Source: Candidatus Eiseniibacteriota bacterium
Lineage (GTDB): Bacteria > Orphanbacterota > Orphanbacteria > Orphanbacterales > Orphanbacteraceae
DNA: 33,341 nt
Direction: 5' to 3'
Assembly (NCBI GenBank): GCA_043809585.1
Contig: JBDROZ010000095.1
Location: 1 to 33,341, forward strand
Shown here: positions 6,983-23,578 of the stretch, one piece after another
Position numbering within the stretch: the first letter of the stretch is position 1
How the letters are laid out: every line of letters begins with the position of its first letter
Position numbers and translations under genes: made by a program
The notes under the pieces: model-generated
Told to the model about the DNA's origin: nothing
The model's input: the letters and a program-made list of their open reading frames with translations, nothing else
Database searches by the model: none

Positions 6983-7140
6983 CGATGTTCCCTGCCCGGT
7001 GGGGGCGTCGCGGGAAAAACCGGACCGTGGGGCCCCCTCTCGGCGCGGACCCGCCGTCCCGAGTCTCCGCTGTTCTCCAAGTCACGTCCCTCGACAGAGT
7101 TTCGGCCGGGCCCGGTCCTCCCTTGAGAAAGTGGCCGGTC

Positions 7141-7169
7141 TTGTCAGGGAACGGGCCGTGAGGTAGGCT
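7141..7169 (+). promoter_or_regulatory. candidate sigma70-like promoter (TTGTCA-17-TAGGCT) for the nucleotidase-SDR operon
   Basis: Hexamers with 17-nt spacing, about 60 nt upstream of the ATG at 7227. The divergent intergenic region is shared with the kinase gene. Confidence 0.3.
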
Positions 7170-7226
7170 CGACCGGTTCCGGGGAGGTCGCCCGAGGAGG
7201 CGTCCCCCGGCCCGAAAGGGGGCGGC

Positions 7227-8696: not shown

Positions 8697-8709
8697 GGGG
8701 GAGGCGCGC

Positions 8710-9444
8710 GTGACGGCGGCAGGCCCGATGGACGGCAGGGTGGTCCTCGTGACGGGGGCCGCGAAACGCATCGGGCGGGCGATCGCCCTCGACCTGGCCG
8801 GGAGGGGGGCCCGCGTGGCGGTCCATTACGGCCGCTCGAAGGTCGAGGCGGAAGAGACCGCCCGTCTCGCGGGGAACGGCGCCCGCCCCTTCGGCGCGGA
8901 CCTCCGTTCGACGAAGGAGATCCGCTGTCTCGCCGAGGAGGTCTACCGGTCGATGGGCCGCATCGACTTCCTCGTGAACAACGCCGCCCTCTTCGGGCGC
9001 ACCCCGTTCCTCGAGACCACGGAAGAGCAGTGGGACCGATTCCACGACGTGAACCTGAAGGCCGCCTTCTTTCTCACCCAGTCGGTCGCCCGTGCGATGA
9101 AAGAGGGGGCGGTCGTGAACATCGCCGACACTTGCGGCGTCAATCTCTGGCTCGGCTACCTCGCCTACGGCGCGTCGAAGGCGGGTCTCGTCGGATTGAC
9201 GCGGGGCCTCGCCCGGGCCCTCGCCCCGAAGATCCGGGTGAACGCCGTTCTCCCCGGACCGATGCTCCCCCCCGAGGGGGAAGGTGAACTCGAAACGCTG
9301 GACGAGGCCGTCTCCAAGACCTTGCTGAAACGCCCCGGCCGCCCAGAGGACATCGCCTCGGCGGTCCGTTTCCTCCTCGAATCCCCCTACATCACCGGCG
9401 CCGTTCTCCCCGTGGACGGCGGCCGCCTGGCGGCGGGGAAGTGA
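8710..9444 (+). CDS. SDR-family short-chain dehydrogenase/reductase (pteridine/FolM-like subgroup possible)
   Basis: VLVTGAAKRIGRAIA Rossmann motif and YLAYGASKAG catalytic YxxxK. GTG start at 8710 (alternative ATG at 8728). TGA stop. Lies 14 nt after the nucleotidase stop. Confidence 0.85.
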   Translation: MTAAGPMDGRVVLVTGAAKRIGRAIALDLAGRGARVAVHYGRSKVEAEETARLAGNGARPFGADLRSTKEIRCLAEEVYRSMGRIDFLVNNAALFGRTPFLETTEEQWDRFHDVNLKAAFFLTQSVARAMKEGAVVNIADTCGVNLWLGYLAYGASKAGLVGLTRGLARALAPKIRVNAVLPGPMLPPEGEGELETLDEAVSKTLLKRPGRPEDIASAVRFLLESPYITGAVLPVDGGRLAAGK

Positions 9445-9560
9445 TAACGACGAGCTCGCTCCGAATTACTTGGCTTCCTCGAACTCCTCTTCTGCATTCT
9501 GGAATGGTCGTGCTCGTGTGGGATACCCGTCTGGAGGGGGGGGGGGCGGGGGGTCCGGCT

Positions 9561-9693
9561 TTGGGAGGGATGGGGGCATAACCGGGGAGTTGTTAGCATC
9601 TTCCGCGACGCCACCTCTTACGAGGCCGGAGAATGGGAGGGTCCTCTCCCGCCGTGCGACGAGCGTTCAAGTCCGCCCCTCTATCCCTCCCTC
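9561..9693 (+). repeat. M1 structured repeat element, copy C (no adjacent M2 units); preceded by a G10-C-G6 homopolymer tract at 9535-9551
   Basis: GGGAGGGAUGGGGGCAUAACCGGGGAG...CCGGAGAAUGGGAGGGUCCUCUCCCGCCGUGCGACGAGCGU...GCCCCUCUAUCCCUCCC. The closing-stem substitution G to A at the 5' side is matched by C to U on the 3' side, relative to copies A, B and D. Confidence 0.7.
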
Positions 9694-9758
9694 AGCCGGC
9701 CCCCCGCCCCGCCGATGCGCGGAGCCGAGCCGGAAGCTCGGGCAGTGTCCGGCCCCGC

Positions 9759-11270
9759 TCACCTTCTCGTCACCCGGTGTACGTGGAATCCGAAATCGAC
9801 GGGCTGGGTTCTATACTTATGTTCAGCGAAATGGGGCCGGTTTTCCCACGGAATGTCCGGGTACGGGACGCGGTAGCGGGTCAATCTCCAGCCGCCCTTC
9901 TCCTCCATGGCCCGTGCATACTCCATTGCCGGGTTGACGATCTCGGACCTGGGCCTCTCGATGATCCAATCGGCCTGCTTGAAGCTGTAGAGATACGAGG
10001 GCAATCCCTCGACCCGCCTCCGCGCTTCCGGATCGGAGGTTGTGATCTGTCCCACCATCCGGAGGTTGGTATAGAACATGATGGGCAGAGGATTGTGAAA
10101 TGTGAAAACGAAATCGTCCGGACCGGCATGTTCCCTCAGGAACTCGACGATCCCCTCGTTCGGTCCGTCGTAGTCGTGAGTGATCTCATAGAGAAAGGGG
10201 AGAAAGGCGCGCCCGTGAAAGAGAAGAAGTGCGCCGAGCACGGCGAACCCGAGGATCCGCTTTCTTCGGAAGCACGCCACGACCATGAGCCCCGAGAGAA
10301 GAGACAAGAGTGGGATGAGGAACACGGTATACCGTGGATTCGGCCAGAGGAGGTAGGAGACGAGCAGTATGGGGGGAACGAAGAGACACGCCGCCAGATT
10401 CAGAATCCTGCGGTTTTGGCCAAGGAGCGGGTATGCGAGGAGGATGGCGAAAGGGAAAATGTGGTTGTTGTAAGCCGCGAGGTACTCCCCGATCGCGGGA
10501 AAGAAGGACGGGCGGTGAAAGTGCTGAATATGCCGATGAACACGCGCCGGATCGGAGTACAGGAACCACGGCGTGCCCAGAGCGGCGATGCCGATCGTGA
10601 TGGCGGCGAAGCGAAAGAACAGTCTGCGTTCGAACCCGAAGAGGAGAAAGTGGATCCAGAAGCCGAGCAACGTGAAGAGACATGCACTGTTCTGCGCGTA
10701 GAAGAGGAAGATCGCGCCAACAAGGAAGAGAAGGTCGTACCGAAACCGTCCGAGTTTGCGGTAGCCTGCCAGCATGAGAAGGAACCCGAACGGCAGCAGC
10801 CCATAGTACCGACACTGTCGCATGTGCAGAAGGTATGGAGTGTTCAGCGCCAGCAGCGCGGCGGACAAAAGCGCGGTTTTTGAATCCGCCGTGTAGAGCC
10901 GGCCGACCCAATAGAGAAGCAAGATGCCGGCGAGCCCGATCATCGCGAATAGGAACCTTCCTCCGAACGTGGTCGGTCCCCAGATCCGGAAGCCGGCGGC
11001 CGCGAAATAGTGCATCGCCCAGGGCGAAAGCGTCCACACGAGATCGTCGTTGAACTGGTCGCAATTGACCGATACCCCGGGCTCGGTAACGAGGTTTCGT
11101 CCGTCCCACGCCCGGGGAAGCCAGTTGAATCCGTCTTCCCCTGAACCGATTGTCCGGGCGACGAGGGCCGTCTCCGCCTCGTCGACCCAAAAGTAGACGT
11201 TTCCGAGGTTCTTGAAGAGAAGAACCGCTCCGACCACGAGTATCAGCAGAAGAGGACCGATTGTCTTCAT
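9759..11270 (-). CDS. polytopic membrane glycosyltransferase, GT-C fold (ArnT/PMT, GT39/GT83-like)
   Basis: About 12 predicted TM helices after the signal-anchor MKTIGPLLLILVVGAVLLF, then a C-terminal soluble domain. ATG at 11270 has a GGGGAG RBS. The longer ORF to 11324 begins with GTG and no RBS. TGA stop at 9759-9761. Confidence 0.6.
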   Translation of the reverse strand: MKTIGPLLLILVVGAVLLFKNLGNVYFWVDEAETALVARTIGSGEDGFNWLPRAWDGRNLVTEPGVSVNCDQFNDDLVWTLSPWAMHYFAAAGFRIWGPTTFGGRFLFAMIGLAGILLLYWVGRLYTADSKTALLSAALLALNTPYLLHMRQCRYYGLLPFGFLLMLAGYRKLGRFRYDLLFLVGAIFLFYAQNSACLFTLLGFWIHFLLFGFERRLFFRFAAITIGIAALGTPWFLYSDPARVHRHIQHFHRPSFFPAIGEYLAAYNNHIFPFAILLAYPLLGQNRRILNLAACLFVPPILLVSYLLWPNPRYTVFLIPLLSLLSGLMVVACFRRKRILGFAVLGALLLFHGRAFLPFLYEITHDYDGPNEGIVEFLREHAGPDDFVFTFHNPLPIMFYTNLRMVGQITTSDPEARRRVEGLPSYLYSFKQADWIIERPRSEIVNPAMEYARAMEEKGGWRLTRYRVPYPDIPWENRPHFAEHKYRTQPVDFGFHVHRVTRR

Positions 11271-11436
11271 GGCTGCTCCCCGCCGGAGCCTCCGGGACTC
11301 TTCAAGTCGATGATCGGTAGGCACTCCGCAAGGACTTTACCAGAGAACGGCTTGTCTCGGGTGTGTGATCGCGGATCCATGTTGTCATGGGAATCCCGAT
11401 CGGCTCCGCAGCGGGCCCCGACCCCGAATCGCGCAC

Positions 11437-11617: not shown

Positions 11618-13540
11618 TCAGTCCCTCGGCTCGAGGGCCGGGTTCCCCTTCCCGTAGACGAGACTCTGGGCGTGGGTCTTTTCGGGGCGGTGGGGGGGCG
11701 CGTACTTCCAATAGTGGAGAAACTCCCGGTAGGCGAGCCGTGCCCGTTCGTCGTCTCCCCGTTCCTCGAGCGCCCGCCCCAAATAATAGAAGGAGAGAGG
11801 GAGCACCGGCGGTAGGTCGAGCAGCGACTCGCCCCGCTCGACCACCCACTCGAGATCCTGAACCGCCGCGCCCGAGCGCCCCGACTGCACCGACGCCCGG
11901 CCGAGCAGGTGCCGGACCAGACGATCCTCCCCGCGCCCGAGCGCCCGGCGGAGCGGGGGCGTCGCCTCCCATCCCTCGCCCTGCAGGAGGAAGTAGTAGG
12001 CGTCGATCAGCTCCGTCCAGGCGCCGCCCGCGCCGGGGATGGTCTCCAGCTCGAGCCGCTTCGCCGCGACCGCGCCCCGGTCGAGGCGGTACGCCCCGTG
12101 GAGCCCCTCCAGATAGACCGGGAACCCAGGGGGCCCGGGCGCGGCGTCCGGTCTCTTTCCCGCGCGATACCGGAGTTCGGCGAGTTCGGTCCACGCCGAG
12201 TCGACACTCCCCTCCTCGAGAAAGACGTAGACGAGGCGGGCCGTCAGGTCGAGAAGGCTCTCCTCGTCGTTCATGCGATACGCCTCGTCCCTCGCTTCGC
12301 GAAGGGTCACCCTCGCCTCGGCGAACCCCCCTTCGGCGAGAGCAAGACCCGCCCGCGCCGCGAGATGGAGGAACCGAGGCCTCGTTCCTTCTTCGCCGTG
12401 GGGGTCCGGGGAGGGGGGGAGGGCGAGGAGTTTCGCCGTCTCGTCGAGGAGACCTTCCGAGTAGAGAGCGGAAGCGAGGCCGATCCGGGCGAGCGTGTCG
12501 CGGGGGAGGAGATCGAGCGCCCGGCCGTACTCTTCTCGCGCGAGATCGAGAAGACCGTCCCGGAGGGCGGCGCCGCCGAGAAGCCGGTGAGGCAGGGGGT
12601 CGAGGGGGCGCGCACGAACGGCCTTGCCGAACAGATCCCGCGCCCCGCTCCCCCCCTCCCGGGACGATGCCAGGAGGCCCCGGAGGAGGAGCGTCTCGAA
12701 ACGGTCGGGAAAGCGGGAGTGGAGACCGCGAACGATCTCCTCGGCCTCGTCCCATGCCCCCCGGACGATCGCGAGGCGCGCCTCGTGCACCCGACGGTCG
12801 AAGGGCCCCAGCCTCTCGGCTCGGACCTCGCCGATCATCTCCCTTCCCCGCTCCCGTCTCTCCGAGAGGAAGAGCCGGAAGCCGAGCCACGATCGGACGG
12901 CGTCATGGTCGCCGTTCTTCTCGAGGGCCGCCGCGCCGAGCGTGAGGGAACCGAACCGGAGGGCCCGGGCGAAGACTGCTTCCCCTTCCGGGACCACGGG
13001 GAAGTTCTCCCGGGGGGGGGCGGGTTCGCCGCCGAGCCGGATCGCCGTCGAATCGGCCAGGGAACCGATGGCGGAGGAGAGTGATCCGTCGCCGCCCGCC
13101 CCGGCCCCGATCTCCCACGACCGGGCGAAGGGAGAGAGGGCCCCCGTGACGGTGACCGCCCCATCCGTCTGCCCCGTTCGCCACCGGAGGAGGAGAATGC
13201 CGTCCAGGTCGTATTCGTCCGCCTCGCTCCGGATGTACGACCGGGCCGACATGTCGGTGGAGCCCTGGAAATCCGCCATCGCCGCGGCCAGGTTCTCCTC
13301 GAGACCCTCGGGCAGGGAGGGAATGGTGAAGGCGAGCCCCGTCTCGTCGAGGGCCCGGGCGAAGGGGAGAACGAGGCCCTCCGCTTCGCCGCCGCCGGGT
13401 CCCGGAAGAACCGCCAGGACGAGGGGCCGGGCGCCGCCGGCCGGGGCCGCCATGAGCGCCGCTCCCGCCGCGAGGAGAAAGCAGATGCGCCGCGCCGCTT
13501 TCGCGAGAATCGGGTTTTTCATCGAGCGGATCATTTCCAT
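11618..13540 (-). CDS. secreted TPR-repeat protein
   Basis: Signal peptide MEMIRSMKNPILAKAARRICFLLAAGAALMAAPAGG. Multiple TPR-like helical repeats (LGRALEERGDDERARLAYREFL etc.). Only the C-terminal 640 aa of the 1301-aa six-frame ORF are real. The N-terminal part is antisense to the permease gene. Confidence 0.7.
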   Translation of the reverse strand: MEMIRSMKNPILAKAARRICFLLAAGAALMAAPAGGARPLVLAVLPGPGGGEAEGLVLPFARALDETGLAFTIPSLPEGLEENLAAAMADFQGSTDMSARSYIRSEADEYDLDGILLLRWRTGQTDGAVTVTGALSPFARSWEIGAGAGGDGSLSSAIGSLADSTAIRLGGEPAPPRENFPVVPEGEAVFARALRFGSLTLGAAALEKNGDHDAVRSWLGFRLFLSERRERGREMIGEVRAERLGPFDRRVHEARLAIVRGAWDEAEEIVRGLHSRFPDRFETLLLRGLLASSREGGSGARDLFGKAVRARPLDPLPHRLLGGAALRDGLLDLAREEYGRALDLLPRDTLARIGLASALYSEGLLDETAKLLALPPSPDPHGEEGTRPRFLHLAARAGLALAEGGFAEARVTLREARDEAYRMNDEESLLDLTARLVYVFLEEGSVDSAWTELAELRYRAGKRPDAAPGPPGFPVYLEGLHGAYRLDRGAVAAKRLELETIPGAGGAWTELIDAYYFLLQGEGWEATPPLRRALGRGEDRLVRHLLGRASVQSGRSGAAVQDLEWVVERGESLLDLPPVLPLSFYYLGRALEERGDDERARLAYREFLHYWKYAPPHRPEKTHAQSLVYGKGNPALEPRD

Positions 13541-13678
13541 ATGATGAAGATCGTCCTCCTCCGGCGGGAATGCAAGGGGAGTTTGACCGGAACCGACACC
13601 GCTCCACCGACTTACCCTTTGTGCCGATAAGGGGATGGGAGGTGTGCTACCATTGCCCTCCCCGAGAGGCAGGAAGGA

Positions 13679-15829
13679 ATGATGGGCGCCATGGCCGGGT
13701 TCTTTCGGACGTTCTTTCTCGAGACCGTCCGAGTGCTCTACGAGAGCGGGATCTTCGTACTCTTCGGCTTCTTCATCGCCGGACTCCTGCACCATTATCT
13801 CGCGACGGACCGGATCGTCCGCCATCTCGGGAAGCGCGATTTCCGGTCGATCCTGAACGCGGCCGTGCTCGGCGCCCCCCTCCCCCTCTGTTCCTGCGGG
13901 GTCCTTCCCGCGGCGGTCGCCCTCCGGCGGAAGGGGGCGAGCCGGGAGTCGGTCCTTTCCTTCCTCGTCTCCACCCCCGAGACGAGCGTCGAATCGATCG
14001 CCGTCTCTTATGGTCTTCTCGGTCCCGTGTTCGCCGTGGTTCGGCCCCTGGCCGCCCTCTTTTCCGCGGCCGTGGCGGGCGTGGCCCATCTGGTCTTCGG
14101 CGAGGAGCGGGCGGGGGAGGTGGACGAAGGGGAGGCGCCGGCGGCGAAAGCGGACGATGGCGGGTGCGAACCGGCATCGGAGGCGAAACCTCCGGCGACG
14201 GCCGGGAAGGGGCGGTTCCGGGGGTCCGTCGACTACGCCTTCGTCACCCTCTTCGACGAACTGGTCTTCTGGTTCCTCTTCGGCGTGATCCTGACCGGGC
14301 TTCTCGGTGCCGTCCTGCCGGAGGATTTCTTCGCCCGCACTCTGGGGGCGGGGTTCCTTTCGATGCTCTTCGCGATCGCCGTCGGCATCCCCCTCTACAT
14401 GTGCGCGTCCGGATCGACCCCGATCGCCGCCGCGTTTCTGGCGAAGGGACTGAATCCAGGAGCCGTCCTCGTCTTTCTTCTCGCGGGGCCGGCGACGAAC
14501 GCCGCCACCCTCACGGTCCTGGGGCGGACTTTCGGCAAGCGTTTCCTCCAGATCTTTCTCGCGTCCATCGTCGTCTCCGCCCTCGCGGCGGGATACGCGC
14601 TGAACCGGGTGTACACATGGAGCGCCGATCAGGTGCCGGACTACGGCGAAGGGACGGCCGGCTTTCTGATCAGCGTGATCAAGGGGCTCGGCTTCCTCGC
14701 GTTCCTCTTTCTCGCCTGGCGGAGCCTCCGCCGGACCGGTCTCGGCCCGGGGATACGGGAGCTCCGGGGGAACCTGGTCACCGTCTTCACCCCCCTCCTC
14801 CGCCTCCGGCCCCGTCATCTGTTCGGCACGCGGGCCGGCCGGATCGCACTCGTCCTCGCGGTTCTCGCCTGGCTCGCGAGCGGGTTCTATTCGGTGCGTC
14901 CGGGGGAAGTCGGCCTGGAAAGGGACTTCGGGAAGGTGGCGGCGACGAACGTTCCTCCGGGACTTCACTGGTGTTTCCCCCGGCCCGTGGGGCGGGTGGC
15001 GAAGTGCTCCGTGGAGGGGATCGTCCGGGTGGACATCGGATTCCGGTCGGGGACGAAGACCCGGGACCCCCTCGCGTTCTACGGCGCGCCGGAGGAGGAG
15101 GAGACGCCGGTCAGCCGGGTCTTCGACGAGTCGGTCTTCCTCACCGGCGACGAGAATCTGATCGACGTGGTCAGCACGGTTCACTACCGCGTGACCGACG
15201 GGGCGACGTACGTCTTCGGCGTCGAGTCGGGGGAGGGAATCGTGCGGAGCACCGTCCTCTGGGCTCTGGTCCGGGAGCTCGCGAACCGGTCCATCGACCG
15301 GATCTACACCACCGACCGCCTCGACGTGGAAGAGCGGGTCCGGGATCGGGCGAACCGCATTCTGGTCGAAGCCGATTCGGGGCTCCGCATCGAGGGAGTT
15401 CGCCTCGTCGATGTCCACGCCCCCCGCGAGGTCCACTACGATTTTCGCGACGTGGCAAGCGCCCAGGAAGACCGGGCCCGGATGATCCACGAGGCCCGGG
15501 TCTACTGGCAGGGGACGGTTCACGAAGCCCGGGGGCGGGGGGCACGGATCGTCTCCGACGCATCGGGCGCCAAAGCCCTGGCCGTCGCCGGCGCGGCGGG
15601 CTCGGCCCGCCGGTTTCGCCTTCTCGAGGAAGCGGCCCGTGCCGAGCGGGGGGGGACCCGCACCCGCCTCTACCTGGAGTCGATGGAGCGCGTGCTCCCC
15701 CTGTCGGGACGCACCGTGGTCCGGCCCGACCCGGTCGGCGTGAAGGATTTCGAACTCTGGTTCAAACTCGGGGAGGAACCGACGGTGCTCCCCGGATTGC
15801 TCGGTGAAGAGAAAGGGGACCTGCGATGA
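13679..15829 (+). CDS. fusion protein: DUF318/COG0701 (ArsP-like) two-repeat permease + C-terminal HflK-like SPFH/band-7 domain
   Basis: N-terminal half carries the GAPLPLCSCGVLPAAVAL permease motif and two 4-TM repeats joined by an acidic linker. C-terminal half, VRPGEVGLERDFGKV...NVPPGLHWCFP...FLTGDENLIDVVSTVHYRV..., aligns with HflK. GAGGCAGGAAGGA RBS. TGA stop overlaps the next start (ATGA). Confidence 0.8.
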   Translation: MMGAMAGFFRTFFLETVRVLYESGIFVLFGFFIAGLLHHYLATDRIVRHLGKRDFRSILNAAVLGAPLPLCSCGVLPAAVALRRKGASRESVLSFLVSTPETSVESIAVSYGLLGPVFAVVRPLAALFSAAVAGVAHLVFGEERAGEVDEGEAPAAKADDGGCEPASEAKPPATAGKGRFRGSVDYAFVTLFDELVFWFLFGVILTGLLGAVLPEDFFARTLGAGFLSMLFAIAVGIPLYMCASGSTPIAAAFLAKGLNPGAVLVFLLAGPATNAATLTVLGRTFGKRFLQIFLASIVVSALAAGYALNRVYTWSADQVPDYGEGTAGFLISVIKGLGFLAFLFLAWRSLRRTGLGPGIRELRGNLVTVFTPLLRLRPRHLFGTRAGRIALVLAVLAWLASGFYSVRPGEVGLERDFGKVAATNVPPGLHWCFPRPVGRVAKCSVEGIVRVDIGFRSGTKTRDPLAFYGAPEEEETPVSRVFDESVFLTGDENLIDVVSTVHYRVTDGATYVFGVESGEGIVRSTVLWALVRELANRSIDRIYTTDRLDVEERVRDRANRILVEADSGLRIEGVRLVDVHAPREVHYDFRDVASAQEDRARMIHEARVYWQGTVHEARGRGARIVSDASGAKALAVAGAAGSARRFRLLEEAARAERGGTRTRLYLESMERVLPLSGRTVVRPDPVGVKDFELWFKLGEEPTVLPGLLGEEKGDLR

Positions 15830-16728
15830 GCCGAAGGAAGCGGTGGACCCTGATCGTCCTCTCAGCCCTCGCGGCGGTGTACGTCGCCTCCTCGTTCTAC
15901 GTGGTCGACGTGACGGAGTACGTGGTGGTGACCCGGTTCGGTGACCCGGTGGCGGTCCACACGTCGCCCGGGCCCCACTTCGACCTCTGGAAGCCGATCG
16001 AGACGCTCGTCCGCATCGACGCCCGGCTCCTCACTCTCGATCTGGAACCGTCCGAGTTCCTCACGGAGGACAAGAAGAACGTGGTGGCGAGCGGGTACAC
16101 GCTCTGGCGGGTGGACGACCCGCTCCTCTATCTCAGGCGCGTCTACAGCCGGCGGGGGGCGGAGGCGAGGATCGCTGACATTATCTCCTCCGAGATCGGC
16201 TCCGCTCTCGGCCGGGTCCCCTTCTCCGCCCTCGTCTCCACGGACAGCACGGTGATCCGTCTCGACGAGGTGGTCGCGTCGATCAAGGAGCGGAGCGCGG
16301 GGCGGCTGAGCGAGGACTACGGGCTCGAGATCCGCGAGTTCCGGATCAAGCGGCTCGCCTTCCCCGAGCAGAACAAGGAATCGGTCTTCCAGCGGATGAG
16401 GGCCGAACGGCAGCGGATCGCCCGGCAGTACCGTTCCGAGGGGGAAGAGGAGTCGATGAAGATCAAGGCGGACGCGGACAGGCAGAAGACGGAGATCCTC
16501 GCCGATGCGTCCCGCCGGGCCGAGGAGATCCGGGGGGAAGGGGAGGCGGACGCCGCCCGCATCTACGCCGAGGCGATCCGGGCCGATCCGGATTTCTACA
16601 CCTTTCTCCGGACTTTGGACAGCTACGAGAAGATCGTGGACGAGAACACGACCTTGGTCCTGCCGAGCGATTCGGAGCTGATGCGGCTCCTGACGACCGG
16701 CCGGACGGCGTCAGGGGGGGGACGGTAG
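15826..16728 (+). CDS. hflC: HflC-like SPFH/band-7 protein
   Basis: N-terminal TM, then SFYVVDVTEYVVVTRFGDPV...GPHFDLWKPIETLVRIDARLLTLDL and the C-terminal coiled region typical of HflC. The start overlaps the upstream stop. TAG stop abuts the GTG of the next gene. Confidence 0.8.
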   Translation: MSRRKRWTLIVLSALAAVYVASSFYVVDVTEYVVVTRFGDPVAVHTSPGPHFDLWKPIETLVRIDARLLTLDLEPSEFLTEDKKNVVASGYTLWRVDDPLLYLRRVYSRRGAEARIADIISSEIGSALGRVPFSALVSTDSTVIRLDEVVASIKERSAGRLSEDYGLEIREFRIKRLAFPEQNKESVFQRMRAERQRIARQYRSEGEEESMKIKADADRQKTEILADASRRAEEIRGEGEADAARIYAEAIRADPDFYTFLRTLDSYEKIVDENTTLVLPSDSELMRLLTTGRTASGGGR

Positions 16729-17640
16729 GTGCGGTTACCGGTCTCACCGGGCAGGGGTCTGCTGATTCTCGGGGCGGCCGTCTGGCTGCTGGCGGGGGTC
16801 TATACGGTCGAGCAGGACGAGGAGGCGGTGGTCCGCCTCTTCGGTCGTCCGTGGAAGACCCGCGTCCCTTCGGGCATCCACTACGCGCCCCCCTGGCCGA
16901 TCGGGATCCGCACCGTGGTCCGCACGACCACGTCATACCAGATGAGCGTCGGCTTCAAGATCGCCGACTCGGTCCGCGGCCTCCCGCCGGCGCGGACGGA
17001 GGTCGAGTTCCTCACCGGGGACACGAACATCATCGATCTCGAGATGATCCTCTAGTACACGATCGAGAACCCCTTCCGATTCGCATTGATGGTGGAGGAT
17101 CCCCACTTCCTGGTCCGCCGCGCCGCGGAGGCGGCGGCGACGGGCGTCCTCGCGAAGGGCGGCGTCGACCGGGCGCTCACGTCGGGCCGGACGTCCTTCC
17201 TCGACGAGGTCCGGCGGGCGACCCAGGAGATGCTCCGGGAGTCGGACGCGGGGGTGACGGTGGTCTCCGCGACGCTGAAGCGCATCGAGCCGCCCGGCGA
17301 GGTGATCGAGGCTTTTCAGGACGTACAGAACGCCAAGTCGGACCGGGAGCGGGCCATCAACGAAGCGAACGGCTATCGGAACGAGATCCTGCCGAGGGCC
17401 AGGGGCGAAGCGGAGGCGGCCCTCTCCGCGGCCGAGGCGGACCGCCACGCCCGGGTCGAGCGCTCTCGGGGGGACGCGGACCGATTCCTCCGGGTCCTCG
17501 CCGAATACCGGAAGGCCCCTCAGGAGACCCGGGAGCGCCTCTACCTCGAGGTGGCGGAACGGGTGCTGTCGAAGGCGAAGGTCTACGTGATCGACTCGGA
17601 CGGCGGCCGCAATCCCGTGGGCGTCAAGCTGATCGACTGA
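16729..17640 (+). pseudogene. hflK: HflK-like SPFH protein interrupted by an in-frame TAG at 17053-17055 (expected Gln codon)
   Basis: 16729-17052 and 17056-17640 are in the same frame. The translation is co-linear with HflK across the stop (...FLTGDTNIIDLEMIL*YTIENPFRFALMVEDP... versus E. coli ...VDVELNVQYRVTNPEKYLF...). TAG is a normal terminator in this window (12 genes). Confidence 0.7.
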
Positions 17641-17675
17641 AGAACGAATCCTCTTCGTTCCCGAGCCCCCGTCCG

Positions 17676-18716
17676 CTACACGAAGATTCCTTCCCGGTTC
17701 AAAGAGAGGAAGCAGAGGAGCGGCTCGGTGAGGTTTCCGATCTCTTTCTCCGGTTCCTTCGGATTGAAGAGATGGAAGGGATCGACCAAGTGGCGGGGGT
17801 TCACCAGGCGCGGTCCGGCCCGGAGGATCTCCACGGTGATCGCCCGGGTCCCGTACGTCTCGTGGAGGTAGTCGGACTCGGTGCCCCGCGTGAGAAAGAA
17901 GGGGGCCTGGCGACCCATCTGCTTCGCCCGGTAGCCGTAGGCCGGTTGGTGGTCGATCAGGGTCTGGCCGAGGTTCCGGTACCACTCGTCGTGGCGGGAG
18001 CGGCGCCGGGTCCCCCCGTAGGGGAAAAGGAAGCGCCCCCCGAAGGAGTGGAGGGAGAGGGCGTAGTCGAAGCGGTTCTCTTGAAGATGGGACCGAAGCG
18101 CCGCGGTCTCGGGCTCGCTGAACGGCCGGTGTCCCGGATAGTAGAATCGCCGGAGGGCCCGGTGCCAGAAATAGCGCCGGGAAAAGAAGGCGCTGAAGTT
18201 CCGGTTCAAGTCGACGCCCCGCCCGTTCCTTCTCCGGAGCCGGGGCCGCCCCCGCGCGAGATCCCGCTCCACCTCCAGGTATCCGTCCGGATTCAAGACA
18301 GGCACGAAGTGGACTTCCCGCTCGTGAAGCAGGGGGTTCTGCTTCATGTTGGCGGTGAACCGGTCGAGAAGGTGGATGTTGGTCTCGGCGCCGATGAACT
18401 CGATCGAGTGAATGAGGGACGTGACGAGAAAGCGGACCGGCTCCGCGGAGGTCTCCGACACGTTGACCGCCTGGAAGAGCCAGATCGGTTCTCCCCCGAC
18501 GCTCGTGCCTATCTGAACCGGGAAGATGTGCCGGGGGTACCGCTTCAAGAGCCGGTCGATCTGGATGAAGATCTCCCGGTAGGTGTGGTACGGGCCGTAC
18601 CGCTTCGTGTCGAAGGTGGTCCCGTACTTCTCGTCTTTCAGGAGCCGGTCGTAAAAGCTCCGCCAGCTTCTCCGGTAAGGTGGTTTCGCCATGGTCCTCC
18701 GCCGTTCACTCTCCAC
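17676..18716 (-). CDS. M14-family zinc carboxypeptidase
   Basis: Motifs HSIEF (Zn-binding HxxE), NPDGY, VDLNRNF and SLHSFG. An alternative start MAKPPY at 18692 is possible. TAG stop. Confidence 0.8.
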   Translation of the reverse strand: MESERRRTMAKPPYRRSWRSFYDRLLKDEKYGTTFDTKRYGPYHTYREIFIQIDRLLKRYPRHIFPVQIGTSVGGEPIWLFQAVNVSETSAEPVRFLVTSLIHSIEFIGAETNIHLLDRFTANMKQNPLLHEREVHFVPVLNPDGYLEVERDLARGRPRLRRRNGRGVDLNRNFSAFFSRRYFWHRALRRFYYPGHRPFSEPETAALRSHLQENRFDYALSLHSFGGRFLFPYGGTRRRSRHDEWYRNLGQTLIDHQPAYGYRAKQMGRQAPFFLTRGTESDYLHETYGTRAITVEILRAGPRLVNPRHLVDPFHLFNPKEPEKEIGNLTEPLLCFLSLNREGIFV

Positions 18717-18876
18717 CGCTTACCATAATGGATGGAGGCGGCCGGTGTAAAGCTCCTTCCCCCCGGCTCTTGCGCGCCTCCCTGCGGTTCGATTCCCCAT
18801 TGAATAGTCCGCCCCCTCTTGAGGTATGCTGCAAGGGAACGGCGGGATGTCCGCTCGGGGAGAACGCGAACCGGCG

Positions 18877-19452
18877 ATGGAAAGACGGGATGAGCAGGAG
18901 TGGATCGCCCGCTGCCGGGCGGGGGACCGGGACGCCTTCGCTCCGATCGTGGAGGCGTACAAGCGGCGCGCCTACTTCACCGCCCTCGGACTGGTCGGGG
19001 ACCGGGAGGAGGCGTACGACCTCTCCCAGGAGGCCTTCGTCCGGGCTTTTCGGGCGATCCGGCGCTTCGACAACTCCCGGGAGTTCGCCCCCTGGTTCTT
19101 CCGGATCTTGCGCAATCTGTGCGCGTCGTCCCTCTCCCGCAGGAGCGCCCGGAAGACCGATTCCCTCGACGAAATGCAGGAGGGGGGGCGGGATTTTCCC
19201 GCGGGCGACCGCTACCGGCCCGACCTCCTCGCCGAACGGGACGAAACGGTGGAGAGGGTCTGGCGGGGCCTCGCCTCCCTCGACCGGAAGAGCAGGGAGG
19301 TGATCGTCTTGAAAGATCTCCAGGATTACCGCTACCGGGAGATCGCGGAGATCTTGGAGATTCCGATCGGGACGGTGATGTCCCGGCTCTTTCACGCGCG
19401 GCAGAAACTGAAAACCAAGCTCTCGGAGGAGGAGAAGCCTCTTGCGGTGTGA
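18877..19452 (+). CDS. ECF-family RNA polymerase sigma-70 factor
   Basis: Region 2, IARCRAGDRDAFAPIVEAYKRRAYFTALGLVGDREEAYDLSQEAFVRAF, and region 4, LKDLQDYRYREIAEILEIPIGTVMSRLFHARQKLK. The ORF is open from 18826. In-frame ATGs at 18826, 18847 and 18877. 18877 gives the typical ECF N-terminus. Confidence 0.85.
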   Translation: MERRDEQEWIARCRAGDRDAFAPIVEAYKRRAYFTALGLVGDREEAYDLSQEAFVRAFRAIRRFDNSREFAPWFFRILRNLCASSLSRRSARKTDSLDEMQEGGRDFPAGDRYRPDLLAERDETVERVWRGLASLDRKSREVIVLKDLQDYRYREIAEILEIPIGTVMSRLFHARQKLKTKLSEEEKPLAV

Positions 19453-19888
19453 GGACTTCCCGGGGCTGTCCATGGCCTGGCTGGACGACGAGATGGAGGC
19501 GGACGAGCGGCGCTCCTTCGAGGAGCACCTCCGGAACTGTCCCGCCTGCCGCGCGGAACTCGAATTGCTACGGGGGGTAAAGGAAGTGACGATCCGGATG
19601 AAGCTGGCCGATCTGGAAGATCGGGAGTGGCGCCGGTACGGAACCCACGTCTACAACAGAATCGAGCGGGGGACCGGTTGGGTGCTGCTCTCGCTCGGCG
19701 CCATCGTAACGCTCGGCTACGGGATGTGGGGGGCCTTCGCGGATCTCCTCCGGGACGATTCGCTCCCGGTGGTCGTCCGCGCCGGAATTGGATGCGCCCT
19801 CCTGGGGGTCGTGATACTCTTCGTCGGCGTGGTCCGGCAGAGGCTCCATTCCTGGCGCCGTGACCCGTACCGGGGGGTGGAACGATGA
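19442..19888 (+). CDS. anti-sigma factor, zinc-finger (ZAS-like HxxxCxxC) with a C-terminal TM segment
   Basis: EEHLRNCPACRAELELL motif. Two C-terminal hydrophobic helices. GTG start overlaps the sigma gene stop. Stop overlaps the next start (ATGA). Confidence 0.7.
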   Translation: MRCEDFPGLSMAWLDDEMEADERRSFEEHLRNCPACRAELELLRGVKEVTIRMKLADLEDREWRRYGTHVYNRIERGTGWVLLSLGAIVTLGYGMWGAFADLLRDDSLPVVVRAGIGCALLGVVILFVGVVRQRLHSWRRDPYRGVER

Positions 19889-20211
19889 TTCTGGTCACCA
19901 TGGACGACGCGGCCGGATACCGGGTGGTCGAGGTTCTCGGGCTCGTCCGGGGGAACACGGTCCGGGCGAGGGACATCGGCCGGGACATCCTCGCGGGGTT
20001 CCGAAACATCACGGGCGGCGAAGTCCCGGAGTACACCAAGCTGCTCGCCGAGGCCCGGGAGCAGGCGATCGACCGAATGGCGTCGGAGGCCGACCGGCTC
20101 GGCGCAGATGGGGTGTTCGCGATCCGCATGTCGACCGCGGAAGTGATGAAGGGAGCCGCGGAGATCGTGGCCTACGGCACGGCGGTCCGGCTCGAGAAGA
20201 CCGGTTCATGA
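19885..20211 (+). CDS. YbjQ/UPF0145 (DUF74) family protein
   Basis: MILVTMDDAAGYRVVEVLGLVRGNTVRARDIGRDILAGFRNITGGEV...AIDRM...GADGVFAIRMSTAEVMKGAAEIVAYGTAVRL is a full-length match to the family. Confidence 0.8.
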   Translation: MILVTMDDAAGYRVVEVLGLVRGNTVRARDIGRDILAGFRNITGGEVPEYTKLLAEAREQAIDRMASEADRLGADGVFAIRMSTAEVMKGAAEIVAYGTAVRLEKTGS

Positions 20212-20949: not shown

Positions 20950-22098
20950 TCAGGCTGGGCTTCCGTTCGCGGAGGGGGGGCGGCCCTTCCTCTTCGAGAG
21001 GGCCCGCCGTACTTTGAGCCGCCCGTACTCGGCGGCCACCTTCGGCAGCATCCGGGGGGTGAAGAGGATGTTGTTGGTCATGAAGCACTCGAAGGTGCAG
21101 TAGCACTTCGTCTCCCGGATCATGCGGCGGACCTCCTCGGTCCGTTCGGAAAACCAGATCTTCCGGAAGTCGTAATCCGTCTCGCGCAGGTTGCCGAGGG
21201 GCTCCTCGAGGATCTCGCACGGGTAGACGTCGCCGCCCGCGTAGATCACGCCGGAGAGGTTCGCCGCGTAGCAGGGGACCTGGTAGCCCTTCTCGCCCTT
21301 CACGATCCGCGTGATCATGTCCTGGCGGACGTTCTTCATCGCGTTGATCACGTCGGAGCCCGGGTAGTCGTGATACCCGTCCAGGCCGTCCGTCTCCGTC
21401 TCCTCCCGGAGGCGGTTCACCCACTTCTCGTAGGTGCCGGCGTCCACGCCCAAGGCTCTCTCGGCCCGCGCCCCCTTCCGGGCGATCAGGTTGTTCACGT
21501 TCCGGACGCCGTGTTTCTCCCGCATCACCGTGGTCACCTCCATCGCTTTGTCCTGGTTGAAGGAGGACATGGTGGTGCAGATGTTGGCGTTGAAGTTCCG
21601 GTGCTCCTCTTCGAGCTTCTGCAGCTCTTTCAGCGTCCAGAGGCACTTGTCGAAGAGGCCGGGGATGGCGCGGAGACGGTCGTGCTCCTCGCCGAGGGCG
21701 TCGATGGAGACGTCGACGGCGAAGTCCACGCCCGGGTTCTCCCGGAGCATGACGCGGACCTGGTCGATCACCTTGGTCGTGAGCGAGCCGTTCGTCGGGA
21801 TGCCCACGTTCCGGACGTCGTTGTTCCGGCAGAAGATTCTCACGATCTCCGAGAGGTCGTCGCGGAGGAACGGCTCGCCGCCGGTGGGGAGGAGGAAGAG
21901 GATGTCGCCCATGGAACGGGAGGTCTTGTCGTATTCGTCGACGGTCATCTCCCGGGTGGTGGAGATCACCTGTCCGAGGAGGCAGTGGCCGCAGTGGGCG
22001 TTGCAGACGTCGGTGACGAACAGAATGATGTAGTGGGGGTCGGCGTTCCGTTTCCGGAAGACGCGTTTTCCGTACTTGGCGTATCCGAGAAAGCTCAC
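20950..22098 (-). CDS. radical SAM enzyme with C-terminal SPASM/twitch-type auxiliary cluster domain
   Basis: CNAHCGHC (CxxxCxxC) and GGEPFL. C-terminal CYAANLSGVIYAGGDVYPC (CX12GX4C) followed by CYCTFEC. GTG start 4 nt after the upstream gene stop. TGA stop. Confidence 0.8.
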   Translation of the reverse strand: MSFLGYAKYGKRVFRKRNADPHYIILFVTDVCNAHCGHCLLGQVISTTREMTVDEYDKTSRSMGDILFLLPTGGEPFLRDDLSEIVRIFCRNNDVRNVGIPTNGSLTTKVIDQVRVMLRENPGVDFAVDVSIDALGEEHDRLRAIPGLFDKCLWTLKELQKLEEEHRNFNANICTTMSSFNQDKAMEVTTVMREKHGVRNVNNLIARKGARAERALGVDAGTYEKWVNRLREETETDGLDGYHDYPGSDVINAMKNVRQDMITRIVKGEKGYQVPCYAANLSGVIYAGGDVYPCEILEEPLGNLRETDYDFRKIWFSERTEEVRRMIRETKCYCTFECFMTNNILFTPRMLPKVAAEYGRLKVRRALSKRKGRPPSANGSPA

Positions 22099-22102
22099 CG
22101 CC

Positions 22103-23578
22103 CTACCCCCGCTCTCCGGGATCGCTCCGGCTCCCCCCCTTGCCGCCCTTCTTCTTGACCGACATGGCCTCCACGAAGCTCTTGAAGCCGTACAGTTTTC
22201 TCTTCACGTCGCCGACGCCCCGGATCGTGGCGGCCATCTTCGCGATCTGCTTCGGCCGGAGGTAGAACTCCTTGAGGCCCTGGTCGATGAGGGCGTCGAT
22301 CCTCTCCTTCGGCAACTCGGGATAGTCGACGACGGTCACCTGCTCCTCGTTCTCGCCCAGATACTCGCTCCAGTCTTTCGGGATCAGGTGGCCGTTCTTC
22401 TTCGCCCAGTCGTACAGCTCCGTCCCCGGATAGGCGGCGATGCCGGAGATCTGGATCGTGTCGAGGGGGAGGGACTTGGCGAAGTCGATCGTCTTCCGGG
22501 CCGACCGCTCCGTCTCTCCCGGCGCGCCGATCATGAAGCACCCGTGCAGGGTGAAGCCGAGGTCCGCCGCGTCGTGGGCGAACTCGACGGTCCGCTCCAG
22601 ATTGGTCCCCTTCTTCACCGCGTCCAGGGCCTCCTGGGTGCCGAACTCGAAGCCGATCATCAGCATCCGGCATCCGGCCCTCTGCATGAGTTGCAGGAGG
22701 TCCCGCTTCACGTCGGTCCTGACGTTGCACGACCAGCGGAGCCTCGTGTCGAGCCGCCGTCCCAGGATCTCCCGGCAGACGCCCTCCACGTGCTCCCGGT
22801 TCGCCGTGAACGTGTCGGTCTCGATCATCACCTCCCGGAGGTTCGGGAAGAGGGAGAGATCGTATTCCATCTCGTCCACCACCAGCTTCGGGTCCCGGTA
22901 GCGGTTTTCGTGGCCGTACATCAGCTGAGGATCCCGGCAGAAGGTGCACCGGGCGAAGCAGCCCCGGCCCGAGAGGAGGGTGAGGAAGGGATGGAGCTTT
23001 CCCCCGTCGTAGTACCAGTCGGGATCGATGTGGTGCCACGCGGGGAAGGGGAGTTCGTTCACGTCGATGAACGGGCGGGGGGGCGTACGGACCATCATCC
23101 CGCCCCCGCCGAGGAATGAGAGCCCCCGGGTCGACGCGGGGTCCGATCCGCCGATCAGCTCCCGCAGGGTGTAGTCGTACTCGCCGAGGGCGATGAAGTC
23201 GAGGGCCCCCTTCGCCCGCTCGAAGGTCTCTTCCGGGACGGCGGTCACGTGCTGCCCGACGAGGACCGTCTTGGCGCCGGCCGTCTCCTTCGCGAGGGCG
23301 CAGTAGGCGAGGTCGTTGTCGATGGAGGGGGTGGCGGCGTGCATGACCACCCACTCGGGGGGCTCCTGCCGGAAGAGCCTCTCGGTCCTCTCCCGGTCCC
23401 AGTTCTGGGCGCAGGCGTCAACGAGCTTCGCGTCCAGCCCGGCCTTCTCCAGAACCGCCGTCGCCACGGCGATGTAGTCCGGGTGACGTTGGACCCGGCC
23501 CCGGGAGCGGGCGTCCCATCTCGCGGAGCGCACGAAGTCTTTCACGAAGGGGGGGTTCAGCATCAGGACATTCGCCAT
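22103..23578 (-). CDS. B12-binding-domain radical SAM enzyme (COG1032-type, class B)
   Basis: N-terminal cobalamin-binding-like domain (MANVLMLNPPF...VLVGQHVTAVPEE). Radical SAM core CFARCTFC. ATG at 23578. TAG stop. Confidence 0.8.
   Translation of the reverse strand: MANVLMLNPPFVKDFVRSARWDARSRGRVQRHPDYIAVATAVLEKAGLDAKLVDACAQNWDRERTERLFRQEPPEWVVMHAATPSIDNDLAYCALAKETAGAKTVLVGQHVTAVPEETFERAKGALDFIALGEYDYTLRELIGGSDPASTRGLSFLGGGGMMVRTPPRPFIDVNELPFPAWHHIDPDWYYDGGKLHPFLTLLSGRGCFARCTFCRDPQLMYGHENRYRDPKLVVDEMEYDLSLFPNLREVMIETDTFTANREHVEGVCREILGRRLDTRLRWSCNVRTDVKRDLLQLMQRAGCRMLMIGFEFGTQEALDAVKKGTNLERTVEFAHDAADLGFTLHGCFMIGAPGETERSARKTIDFAKSLPLDTIQISGIAAYPGTELYDWAKKNGHLIPKDWSEYLGENEEQVTVVDYPELPKERIDALIDQGLKEFYLRPKQIAKMAATIRGVGDVKRKLYGFKSFVEAMSVKKKGGKGGSRSDPGERG

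Follow-up and report, generated by a model that had tools for sequence, protein, structure and literature searches.

The 33,341-bp stretch of Candidatus Eiseniibacteriota DNA analysed here (contig JBDROZ010000095.1, G+C ~66%; hereinafter the window), in which genes were called by G+C content at third codon positions (GC3) and scanned by hand, contains a compact forward-strand module of three genes for proteins with SPFH domains of the HflK/HflC type. The first of these proteins is a fusion of a permease with an HflK-like domain (K'), the second is HflC-like (C'), and the third is another HflK-like protein (K2) in which the reading frame is interrupted. The features of the module are listed below, with the evidence on which each rests.

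13679-15829, forward strand: gene 1, SO_0444-family permease followed by the HflK-like paralogue K' (Pfam, NCBIfam, homologue search, AlphaFold2 (AF2) model)
13733-14605, forward strand: permease domain of gene 1 (Pfam ArsP_1, residues 19-309; NF033936, residues 17-319)
13883-13900, forward strand: PLCSCG motif, residues 69-74, in the broken helix of repeat 1 (read from the sequence)
14390-14422, forward strand: repeat 2 motif PLYMCASGSTP, residues 238-248 (read from the sequence)
14654-14830, forward strand: extra (ninth) transmembrane helix, residues 326-353, and basic linker with 8 Lys/Arg (hydropathy, positive-inside rule, DSSP of the model)
14831-14896, forward strand: HflK-type membrane anchor helix, residues 385-406 (hydropathy, AF2 model)
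14885-15829, forward strand: HflK-like SPFH domain, coiled-coil helix of ~90 residues and C-terminal strands, residues 403-716 (TIGR01933, phmmer, Foldseek)
15826-16728, forward strand: gene 2, HflC-like protein C', 300 amino acids (Pfam Band_7; TIGR01932 hflC)
16729-17640, forward strand: gene 3, second, unfused HflK-like protein K2, GTG start, interrupted (NCBIfam/Pfam, intact orthologues)
17053-17055, forward strand: in-frame TAG in gene 3, DLEMIL-stop-YTIENPF (sequence; alignment with the closest relative)

Gene 1 is a single unbroken open reading frame (ORF) of 716 amino acids in the ORF listing of the window, and its Pfam matches are ArsP_1 at residues 19-309 (E-value 3e-41) and Band_7 at residues 405-607 (E-value 1e-11), the latter domain being matched in genes 2 and 3 as well. 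An identical protein on public record (P0001) is assigned to a metagenome-assembled genome of Candidatus Eisenbacteria. The fusion of a permease to an HflK-like SPFH domain, which had been proposed in an earlier sequence-only reading of the window, is upheld, and profile search places an SPFH domain of the HflK type in the C-terminal half. The label 'ArsP/DUF318-type' that the same reading gave to the permease is justified by the Pfam match but can be improved upon: on the curated profile NF033936 ('SO_0444 family Cu/Zn efflux transporter'), which has a cutoff of 300, it reaches 347.8 bits, the match spanning residues 17-319 and profile positions 2-320 of 351, so that a score above the curated cutoff over the whole permease is combined with the Cys-Ser-Cys motif of the family. 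The SO_0444 Cu/Zn family is therefore the better-supported assignment, 'ArsP' being simply the name of the Pfam family. An ArsP organoarsenical efflux permease (TC 2.A.119) was considered and rejected, given that the ArsP_1 match is at the superfamily level only, that the best curated match is SO_0444, and that the window contains no ars genes.

By hydropathy and in the AF2 model, the permease consists of two 4-helix repeats separated by a disordered acidic loop (residues 141-178), and in the model each repeat has a broken helix that bears a conserved motif. The two repeats had been recognised previously, together with a Cys motif, PLCSCG, ascribed to both; this motif occurs once, in repeat 1, and its counterpart in repeat 2 is the degenerate PLYMCASGSTP. 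Among 61 fusion homologues, the Cys-Ser-Cys columns of the former (C71, S72 and C73 in the alignment) are invariant, as are P238, Y240, C242, A243, S246, T247 and P248 of the latter. The Cys-Ser-Cys motif is a signature common to SaoE and sometimes takes the form Sec-Ser-Cys (10.1101/2022.07.06.499078).

The C-terminal half of gene 1 scores 152.3 bits on TIGR01933 (hflK) at residues 403-674, slightly under the cutoff of 159.4. The AF2 model, built on 61 homologues (mean pLDDT 81), presents the protein as one chain with confident domains and a long helix at residues 583-672. A phmmer search of gene 1 against the PDB matched HflK alone (7VHP, E-value 7e-27), and the top Foldseek matches of the model are the HflK chains 9CZ2, 7VHQ and 7WI3, with HflC, stomatin, prohibitin and erlin ranking lower; the permease half had no PDB match by phmmer or Foldseek. 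The arrangement of anchor helix, SPFH domain and coiled coil that characterises HflK and HflC is present. From the positive-inside rule, we infer a cytoplasmic linker between the two halves and, as for HflK, an SPFH domain located outside the membrane. A 1301-residue minus-strand ORF that covers most of gene 1 (11618-15523) is a high-GC artefact; the true minus-strand TPR gene, with orthologues of 633-635 residues, begins near 13540.

The HflC assignment of gene 2 in the sequence-only reading is corroborated by a TIGR01932 (hflC) score of 177 bits against a cutoff of 134; the protein is 43-92% identical to its module orthologues and 33% identical to E. coli HflC. The coupled junctions reported previously are present as well: the stop codon of gene 1 and the start codon of gene 2 overlap as ATGA at 15826-15829, and the TAG of gene 2 (16726-16728) abuts the GTG of gene 3 (junction 16726-16731). 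Purine-rich Shine-Dalgarno-like runs precede all three starts.

Gene 3 had been read as a second hflK, and it is indeed HflK-like, but the in-frame TAG was overlooked. It splits the gene into 108 and 194 codons that are HflK-like on both sides, with TIGR01933 scores of 25.3 and 154.5 bits, each under the cutoff since the gene is split; the NCBI annotation covers just a C-terminal piece of 183 residues (P0140). In the closest relative (locus L001; gene 1 83% identical), the site reads CTG CAA (Gln) TAC versus CTC TAG TAC in the window, and K2 orthologues of 303 residues are intact in L001 and L002. Between the window and L001, the ratio of nonsynonymous to synonymous substitution rates (dN/dS, Nei-Gojobori) takes values of 0.17 and 0.10 in the two parts of gene 3, compared with 0.12 in gene 2, 0.11 and 0.26 in the halves of gene 1, and 0.14 in the peptidase gene next to the module; the low values in both halves of gene 3 speak against pseudogene decay. 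Gene 2 ends on TAG at the length of its orthologues, which marks TAG as a true stop codon in this genome. Programmed read-through or recoding was rejected, as the relatives have a plain Gln codon and TAG also terminates gene 2. By comparison with L001, the stop would be a nonsense mutation of very recent date, an allele in the minority or an error of sequencing; this sequence is carried by one contig only.

How widespread is this arrangement? A homologue search over 5.8 billion proteins, clustered at 90% identity, recovered more than 120 full-length two-domain fusion clusters (700-770 amino acids, E-values below 1e-135) from Eisenbacteria, Gemmatimonadota, Holophagales, Thermoanaerobaculia, Vicinamibacteria, Myxococcota and 'Deltaproteobacteria'. 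In all contigs of relatives that were read (L001-L006), the fusion gene is followed by a Band_7 gene of ~300 codons and then by another of ~303-320 codons, the junctions mostly overlapping by 1-11 bp or abutting, with a few gaps of 10-46 bp. Within-group identities are 31-80% for K', 43-92% for C' and 39-89% for K2, whereas the identity between K' and K2, and of either to E. coli HflK, is ~30%, and C' is 31-34% identical to E. coli HflC. By these identities, K', C' and K2 form three separate orthologous groups kept together across phyla, and K' and K2, at ~30% identity, are therefore old paralogues rather than recent duplicates. The arrangement recurs in dozens of independent genomes, far beyond chance.

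These data bear directly on the most trivial explanation, namely, that the fusion and the three-gene structure are annotation or assembly artefacts, or that the locus is a decaying pseudogene cluster. The in-frame stop in gene 3 is what one would expect in that case, and the window comes from a single contig of a metagenome-assembled genome with no second copy on record. Yet more than 120 independent clusters, as well as complete chromosomes, reproduce the continuous fused ORF, AF2 yields one chain with confident domains, and dN/dS relative to L001 is 0.10-0.26 for every part of the module, both halves of gene 3 included. For the fusion itself, an artefactual origin was rejected on these three lines of evidence; for genes 1 and 2, the artefact reading is already contradicted, and overall we give it a negligible chance of being correct.

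The comparison with relatives reveals a pattern that is not visible from the window alone. At the locus of an Eisenbacteria K2 relative (P0165, locus L008), the position of gene 1 is occupied by a protein of 573 amino acids that joins a Cation_efflux (CDF) domain to Band_7, and the two SPFH genes that come next are the same; of the 120 matches listed for this CDF-HflK fusion, nearly all carry both domains, most of them come from Eisenbacteria, and the NCBI name for such proteins is 'FtsH protease activity modulator HflK'. An exhaustive HMMER search with the K' domain of the window alone, over 1.84 billion representatives at 50% identity, gave 317 matches below 1e-30, the best 150 of which were classed by phmmer, with examples checked by Pfam and NCBIfam. 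Fusions to SO_0444/ArsP permeases account for 45 of these 150, fusions to CDF transporters for 25, and fusions to P1B heavy-metal ATPases, ~990-1040 amino acids in length, for 16; three more have an N-terminal extension of no identified family, and 61 are short or unfused. On TIGR01525 (cutoff 346), scores of 555-611 bits were obtained for the P1B parts, and the HflK parts of the CDF- and P1B-fused relatives score 161-240 bits on TIGR01933 (cutoff 159.4). The fused CDF parts comprise the membrane domain only (profile positions 2-208 of 285) and have HxxxD in both the second and the fifth transmembrane helix, and the fused P1B parts carry CPC; the HxxxD/HxxxD pair is the signature of Zn-type CDF transporters, and CPC that of Zn/Cd/Pb- or Cu-type P1B pumps.

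The same picture emerges when the search is anchored in the second gene. An alignment scan for C', with one genome per GTDB species, found at least 588 relatives, and among the best 80 loci, which were classified, the order K'-C'-K2 is headed by an SO_0444 fusion in 32, by a CDF fusion in 25 and by a P1B fusion in 14, an order also seen when the CDF-type L008 and the P1B-type L010 are read individually. In one further locus (L066), an unfused P1B gene directly precedes genes of the K, C and K types; in rare cases, then, the fused position is replaced by a separate upstream transporter gene. The remaining eight loci are cut by a contig end or otherwise unclear. One of these (L069, positions 6554-9881, a Blastocatellia metagenome-assembled genome) has an Nramp gene 11 bp upstream of C' and K2 and no K' gene; Nramp is here a fourth metal-transporter family found, unfused, with the SPFH pair.

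The link between scaffold and transporter that was suggested in the sequence-only reading has thus clearly been under selection, with more than 120 fusion clusters, gene order kept across phyla, and CDF and P1B transporters in the same position. Conserved fusions to three unrelated families constitute strong comparative ('Rosetta stone') evidence that this HflK/C-type subfamily works physically with metal transporters, because the fusion is real, both its halves are intact, the unit is conserved, the transporters belong to three families, and the neighbouring genes are enriched for metal functions. In a neighbour-joining tree of p-distances, which is rough and serves for coarse grouping only, the K' domains fused to SO_0444 permeases branch in basal clades, those fused to CDF and P1B transporters share a single clade closer to E. 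coli HflK, and K2 groups with the free HflKs near the E. coli clade; this topology suggests at least two fusion lineages with transporter swapping.

The three-gene unit spans more than a dozen bacterial phyla. The hosts of C' are labelled as Acidobacteriota, Eisenbacteria, Gemmatimonadota, delta-proteobacteria, Planctomycetota, Armatimonadota, Verrucomicrobiota, Chloroflexota, Actinomycetota, Spirochaetota, Zixibacteria, Marinimicrobia, WWE3 of the candidate phyla radiation (CPR) and Alphaproteobacteria, including the cultured Tianweitania sediminis Z8; in WWE3, a complete genome of 878 kb (CP006914.1) carries a module of the CDF type. Modules are also present in the complete genomes OZ244990.1 (Eiseniibacteriota) and OZ252114.1 and OZ240092.1 (both Acidobacteriota). 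A tblastn search of plasmids found no full-length SO_0444-HflK fusion at 80% coverage or more. A CDF-type module is present on a conjugative plasmid of the cultured marine alphaproteobacterium Aquibium oceanicum B7 (L092, NZ_CP018172.1, 16552-20197), where the CDF-HflK fusion (WP_072608301.1, annotated as HflK only) is followed by HflC and HflK genes and is flanked by a response regulator, a kinase and an insertion sequence fragment upstream and by a peptidyl-prolyl isomerase (PPIase) and a heavy-metal P-type ATPase downstream.

The genes around the modules are enriched for metal transport. Genes for ZnuA/ZnuC/ZnuB-like proteins lie directly after 8 of the SO_0444-type modules, ZIP genes lie near 10 modules, an extra P1B ATPase gene stands beside 8 of the CDF type, and Fe/Mn superoxide dismutase genes are found at 4 module loci. 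Other neighbours are specific to a module class or a lineage. After K2 in 11 CDF-type modules (L045, 9977-12196, and 10 others), there is a gene for a PpiD/SurA-like double-parvulin protein of ~740 residues, which hints at a link to periplasmic protein folding. After K2 in 15 P1B-type modules (L010, 12097-12651; L058, 9918-10451; 13 others), there is a gene for a protein of ~180 residues with an N-terminal hydrophobic segment and no Pfam match, which may be a fourth component specific to the P1B class. In four Gemmatimonadota-like loci (L028, L032, L055, L076), a CTAACGT core occurs ~40-60 bp upstream of the fusion, extended in three of them to CCTAACGTG or CCTAACGTA; it is probably a promoter element of that lineage rather than a metal operator.

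Several of the fusion genes lie within longer operons, and in the window itself two features border the module.

13516-13678, forward strand: upstream intergenic region, divergent from the minus-strand TPR gene (sequence, promoter scan)
17642-17660, no strand assigned: 7-bp hairpin GAACGAA-TCCTC-TTCGTTC in the gap between gene 3 and the Peptidase_M14 gene (read from the sequence)

The upstream region contains one sigma-70-like match (13516-13545) and, directly before the ATG of gene 1, the Shine-Dalgarno-like run AGGAAGGA; it is ~90% identical to that of L001 and shares no motif with more distant relatives. No riboswitch or leader RNA was matched in Rfam over the whole window at the gathering threshold or over 13400-13800 at E-values up to 1. 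The hairpin has no T-run, and a terminator scan gave no call there; it may mark the end of the operon. Beyond it, separated from gene 3 by a 35-bp gap, lies a convergent minus-strand gene for a Peptidase_M14 zinc carboxypeptidase (17676-18716), a neighbour kept in L001-L003, the product of which may be a zinc-dependent client of the module or may reflect plain synteny. There follows an operon of overlapping forward-strand genes (18826-20211) for an extracytoplasmic function (ECF) sigma factor (18826-19452), a zf-HC2 anti-sigma factor (19442-19888) and a YbjQ_1 protein (19885-20211), Pfam's name for the latter being 'putative heavy-metal-binding'; the trio also follows the module in L001 and L002, in Eisenbacteria only, and could be a local regulator of the module. 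Indeed, the TPR, Peptidase_M14 and ECF sigma/zf-HC2/YbjQ_1 neighbours are all conserved within Eisenbacteria only, and flanking genes vary among phyla. Farther away on the minus strand are tandem genes for a radical SAM protein with a SPASM domain (20950-22098) and a B12-binding radical SAM protein (22103-23578), a pair kept in L001 that could serve in peptide or cofactor maturation, and a gene for a 521-residue polytopic membrane protein with no Pfam match (9759-11324), in a region (10001-11000) where the G+C fraction of 0.585 and the AT skew of +0.27 are unusual for the contig.

Could comparison with characterised systems help in understanding what such modules do? Among individual transporters, the obvious reference is SO_0444 of Shewanella oneidensis, which is needed for growth under Zn/Cu stress, adjoins a ZntR-like regulator, and owes its annotation as a Cu/Zn efflux protein to transposon fitness and complementation data (PMC3219624); within the family, tolerance to Cu/Zn through efflux is known for this protein only. 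The module permease resembles it in passing the family cutoff and keeping Cys-Ser-Cys, but SO_0444 is a stand-alone permease of ~350 residues beside its ZntR-like regulator, whereas the module permease is fused to an SPFH domain and has no MerR/ZntR gene nearby. The nearest described analogue of the module as a whole is the PA2439-PA2435 locus of Pseudomonas aeruginosa, in which PA2439 (HflK family), PA2438 (HflC) and PA2437 (HflC family) are found together with the gene for the P1B ATPase HmtA (PA2435). There, PA2439-PA2437 are induced 9-14 fold upon zinc depletion, their products are more abundant in the proteome under Zn depletion, and the PA2439 promoter is bound by Zur (PMC4542158, PMC11761036, 10.1101/2021.05.28.446167); the role of the SPFH genes of this locus has never been examined in the literature. 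The likeness, which rests on published annotation rather than on sequence, consists in three SPFH paralogues and a P1B ATPase in one zinc-linked locus, and the combination of several SPFH paralogues with a transition-metal transporter in one locus is found in the module, too. By description, PA2439-PA2435 corresponds, in unfused form, to the P1B-K' modules and to L066; the differences are that the P. aeruginosa genes are unfused and are annotated as K-C-C, not K-C-K.

In another reading, in our view doubtful but with evidence of its own, the module is a device for metal acquisition or delivery under zinc limitation, its transporters importing metal or feeding extracytoplasmic metalloproteins in a space bounded by SPFH proteins. 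ZnuABC-like and ZIP uptake genes adjoin ~17 of the SO_0444-type loci, the P. aeruginosa locus is Zur-bound and depletion-induced, with HmtA described there as an importer, genes for PpiD/SurA-like periplasmic chaperones come after 11 CDF-type modules, and a zinc carboxypeptidase gene is conserved as a neighbour in Eisenbacteria. However, characterised CDF and CPC-type P1B transporters are mostly exporters of metal from the cytoplasm, as are the characterised SO_0444 members; no recognisable shared palindrome that could serve as a Zur operator was seen upstream of the window module and of 13 related loci, in phyla whose Zur box is not established; and the plasmid copy sits beside a heavy-metal ATPase and a two-component system, as in resistance islands.

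With respect to the SPFH proteins themselves, the standard of comparison is E. coli HflK/HflC (7VHP, 7WI3, 9CZ2). Hidden Markov models, sequence (~30% and 33% identity, respectively) and fold all mark K' and K2 as HflK-like and C' as HflC-like; anchor helix, SPFH domain and long coiled coil are present in each protein; and in both systems the K and C genes are adjacent and translationally coupled. The module differs in having three paralogues (K'-C-K2) instead of two, in bearing a transporter of ~380 residues on the cytoplasmic N-terminus of K', in the near absence of a cytoplasmic tail from K2, and in its metal transport context, as opposed to hfq-hflX. The published residue of HflK for contact with FtsH, 'Arg191', does not coincide with K-12 numbering, in which 191 is Ala and the nearby Arg is 193, and the aligned column is variable in every group, so that this residue is uninformative for the module.

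The HflK/HflC likeness makes it natural to ask whether the module is an ordinary FtsH-HflK/C quality-control complex, in which the fusion would recruit a metal transporter for FtsH-controlled turnover or bring metal flux next to FtsH, itself a zinc metalloprotease. Gene 2 passes the HflC equivalog cutoff, NCBI names the intact K2 orthologues HflK, K2 clusters with the free HflKs near the E. coli clade, the 878-kb CPR genome with a CDF-type module may have room for only one HflKC, and the authors of the P. aeruginosa proteomics study themselves note the link to the Zn-protease HflB/FtsH. All the same, we deem this reading unlikely. Canonical hflKC loci look different (hfq-hflX-hflK-hflC-DUF2065 in E. 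coli; hflK-hflC with a nearby DUF2065 gene on a Tistrella plasmid; an hflK-hflC pair in a sugar-metabolism context with no transporter in Rokubacteria), whereas the C' subfamily is linked almost exclusively to transporter fusions, and covalent fusion to a stable scaffold would be an odd way to present a substrate to a protease. The lack of ftsH nearby adds little: as the sequence-only reading had it, no ftsH-like gene (AAA plus Peptidase_M41) is present in the 33 kb of the window, and an FtsH homologue was found within 8 kb at none of 88 loci, with one weak AAA match (65 bits), but such absence is uninformative because E. coli ftsH is itself unlinked from hflKC. A role for FtsH is neither shown nor excluded, and the contrast drawn in the sequence-only reading, a scaffold for a transporter rather than for FtsH, is not borne out by the missing gene.

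Other SPFH complexes, such as stomatin-aquaporin 1 (9ZD2) and QmcA-YbbJ (8Z5G), offer a precedent for an SPFH oligomer physically associated with a specific membrane partner, and are fold matches in Foldseek. Their clients, however, are bound non-covalently, the bacterial stomatin type pairs with NfeD, and the SPFH domains of the module are of the HflK/C type. An operon of the stomatin-NfeD type was rejected for the module, as no NfeD partner was found among the window genes or the called genes of L001-L006, L008 and L010. As for SPFH proteins fused to SO_0444/ArsP, CDF or P1B transporters, we found no paper that describes them; neither a TOG-superfamily paper on ArsP nor a survey of prokaryotic SPFH operons mentions an SPFH-transporter fusion. 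As far as the searchable literature shows, the fusion is therefore uncharacterised, as had been supposed, although it is widespread, routinely but inconsistently annotated as 'SO_0444 family Cu/Zn efflux transporter' or 'HflK', and has no known function.

Taken together, these observations lead us to favour, as a fairly probable explanation, a dedicated HflK/C-type assembly that tethers metal transporters, one transporter being covalently joined to a subunit. Under this scenario, genes 1-3 would encode a single hetero-oligomeric SPFH assembly, the client of which would be the transition-metal transporter attached to K'. By analogy with the alternation of HflK and HflC in the E. coli 24-mer, K' and K2 would take turns with C' in a ring or cage that is built on the outer face of the cytoplasmic membrane. 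Via the short basic cytoplasmic linker, the permease would reach the wall of the cage, such that several transporters would be held in or at one membrane patch bounded by SPFH proteins, and the unfused K2 would dilute the bulky fused subunits and so allow the ring to close. Metal export, probably of Zn and possibly of Cu or Cd, would then be confined to, and regulated within, a defined membrane and periplasmic microdomain, in which FtsH may or may not reside.

Several considerations weigh against this scenario. Cage formation, the mixing of K' and K2, and the placement of the transporter within the ring or beyond it would all be extrapolations from E. coli HflK/C. Which way the metal is moved is uncertain, as the ZnuABC/ZIP neighbours and the P. 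aeruginosa analogue point to acquisition, and the plasmid and P1B contexts to resistance. A shared regulator site, such as a Zur- or Fur-like palindrome, was not found when the window was aligned with L001-L003 and 13 related upstream regions were inspected. Furthermore, the K' domain of the window falls slightly short of the HflK equivalog cutoff (152 vs 159 bits), and if the stop in gene 3 is real, K2 would be dispensable in this organism. The FtsH-centred and the acquisition or delivery readings, for their part, are best viewed as partly compatible variants of the tethered-client scaffold rather than as exclusive alternatives to it.

A bolder extension of the tethered-client scaffold, which we consider improbable, is that the ring of K', C' and K2 closes into a dome-like chamber on the outer face of the cytoplasmic membrane, into which its own exporters pump Zn or Cu, that is, a bacterial 'metalation compartment'. 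This possibility is hinted at by the ZnuABC/ZIP neighbours, the PpiD/SurA-like genes, the neighbouring zinc carboxypeptidase, and the induction of the P. aeruginosa locus under zinc starvation. If it is true, the compartment would gather scarce metal to be loaded onto metalloproteins that are secreted or periplasmic, or would buffer toxic metal at its exit, in analogy to the supply of the eukaryotic secretory pathway by ZnT transporters, and SPFH cages would acquire a concrete function independent of FtsH.

SPFH proteins, including HflK/C, prohibitins, stomatin, flotillins and erlins, form cages in every domain of life, and the effect of the cage on the enclosed proteins is debated, in part since the clients are loosely bound and contested. 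In the modules described here, the client is fixed by a covalent bond, with transporters from three unrelated metal-transporter families, and is thus known, and the phenotypes to be measured are simple, namely, how well the cells tolerate metal, how much of it they contain, and how they grow when zinc is limiting. Cultured hosts are at hand in Aquibium oceanicum B7, with its conjugative plasmid, and Tianweitania sediminis Z8, and P. aeruginosa provides a tractable unfused analogue. The modules would also add a hitherto unrecognised layer to zinc and copper homeostasis in bacteria, and the naming of the fusions either as 'HflK' or as 'Cu/Zn efflux transporter', never as both, is a systematic annotation problem.

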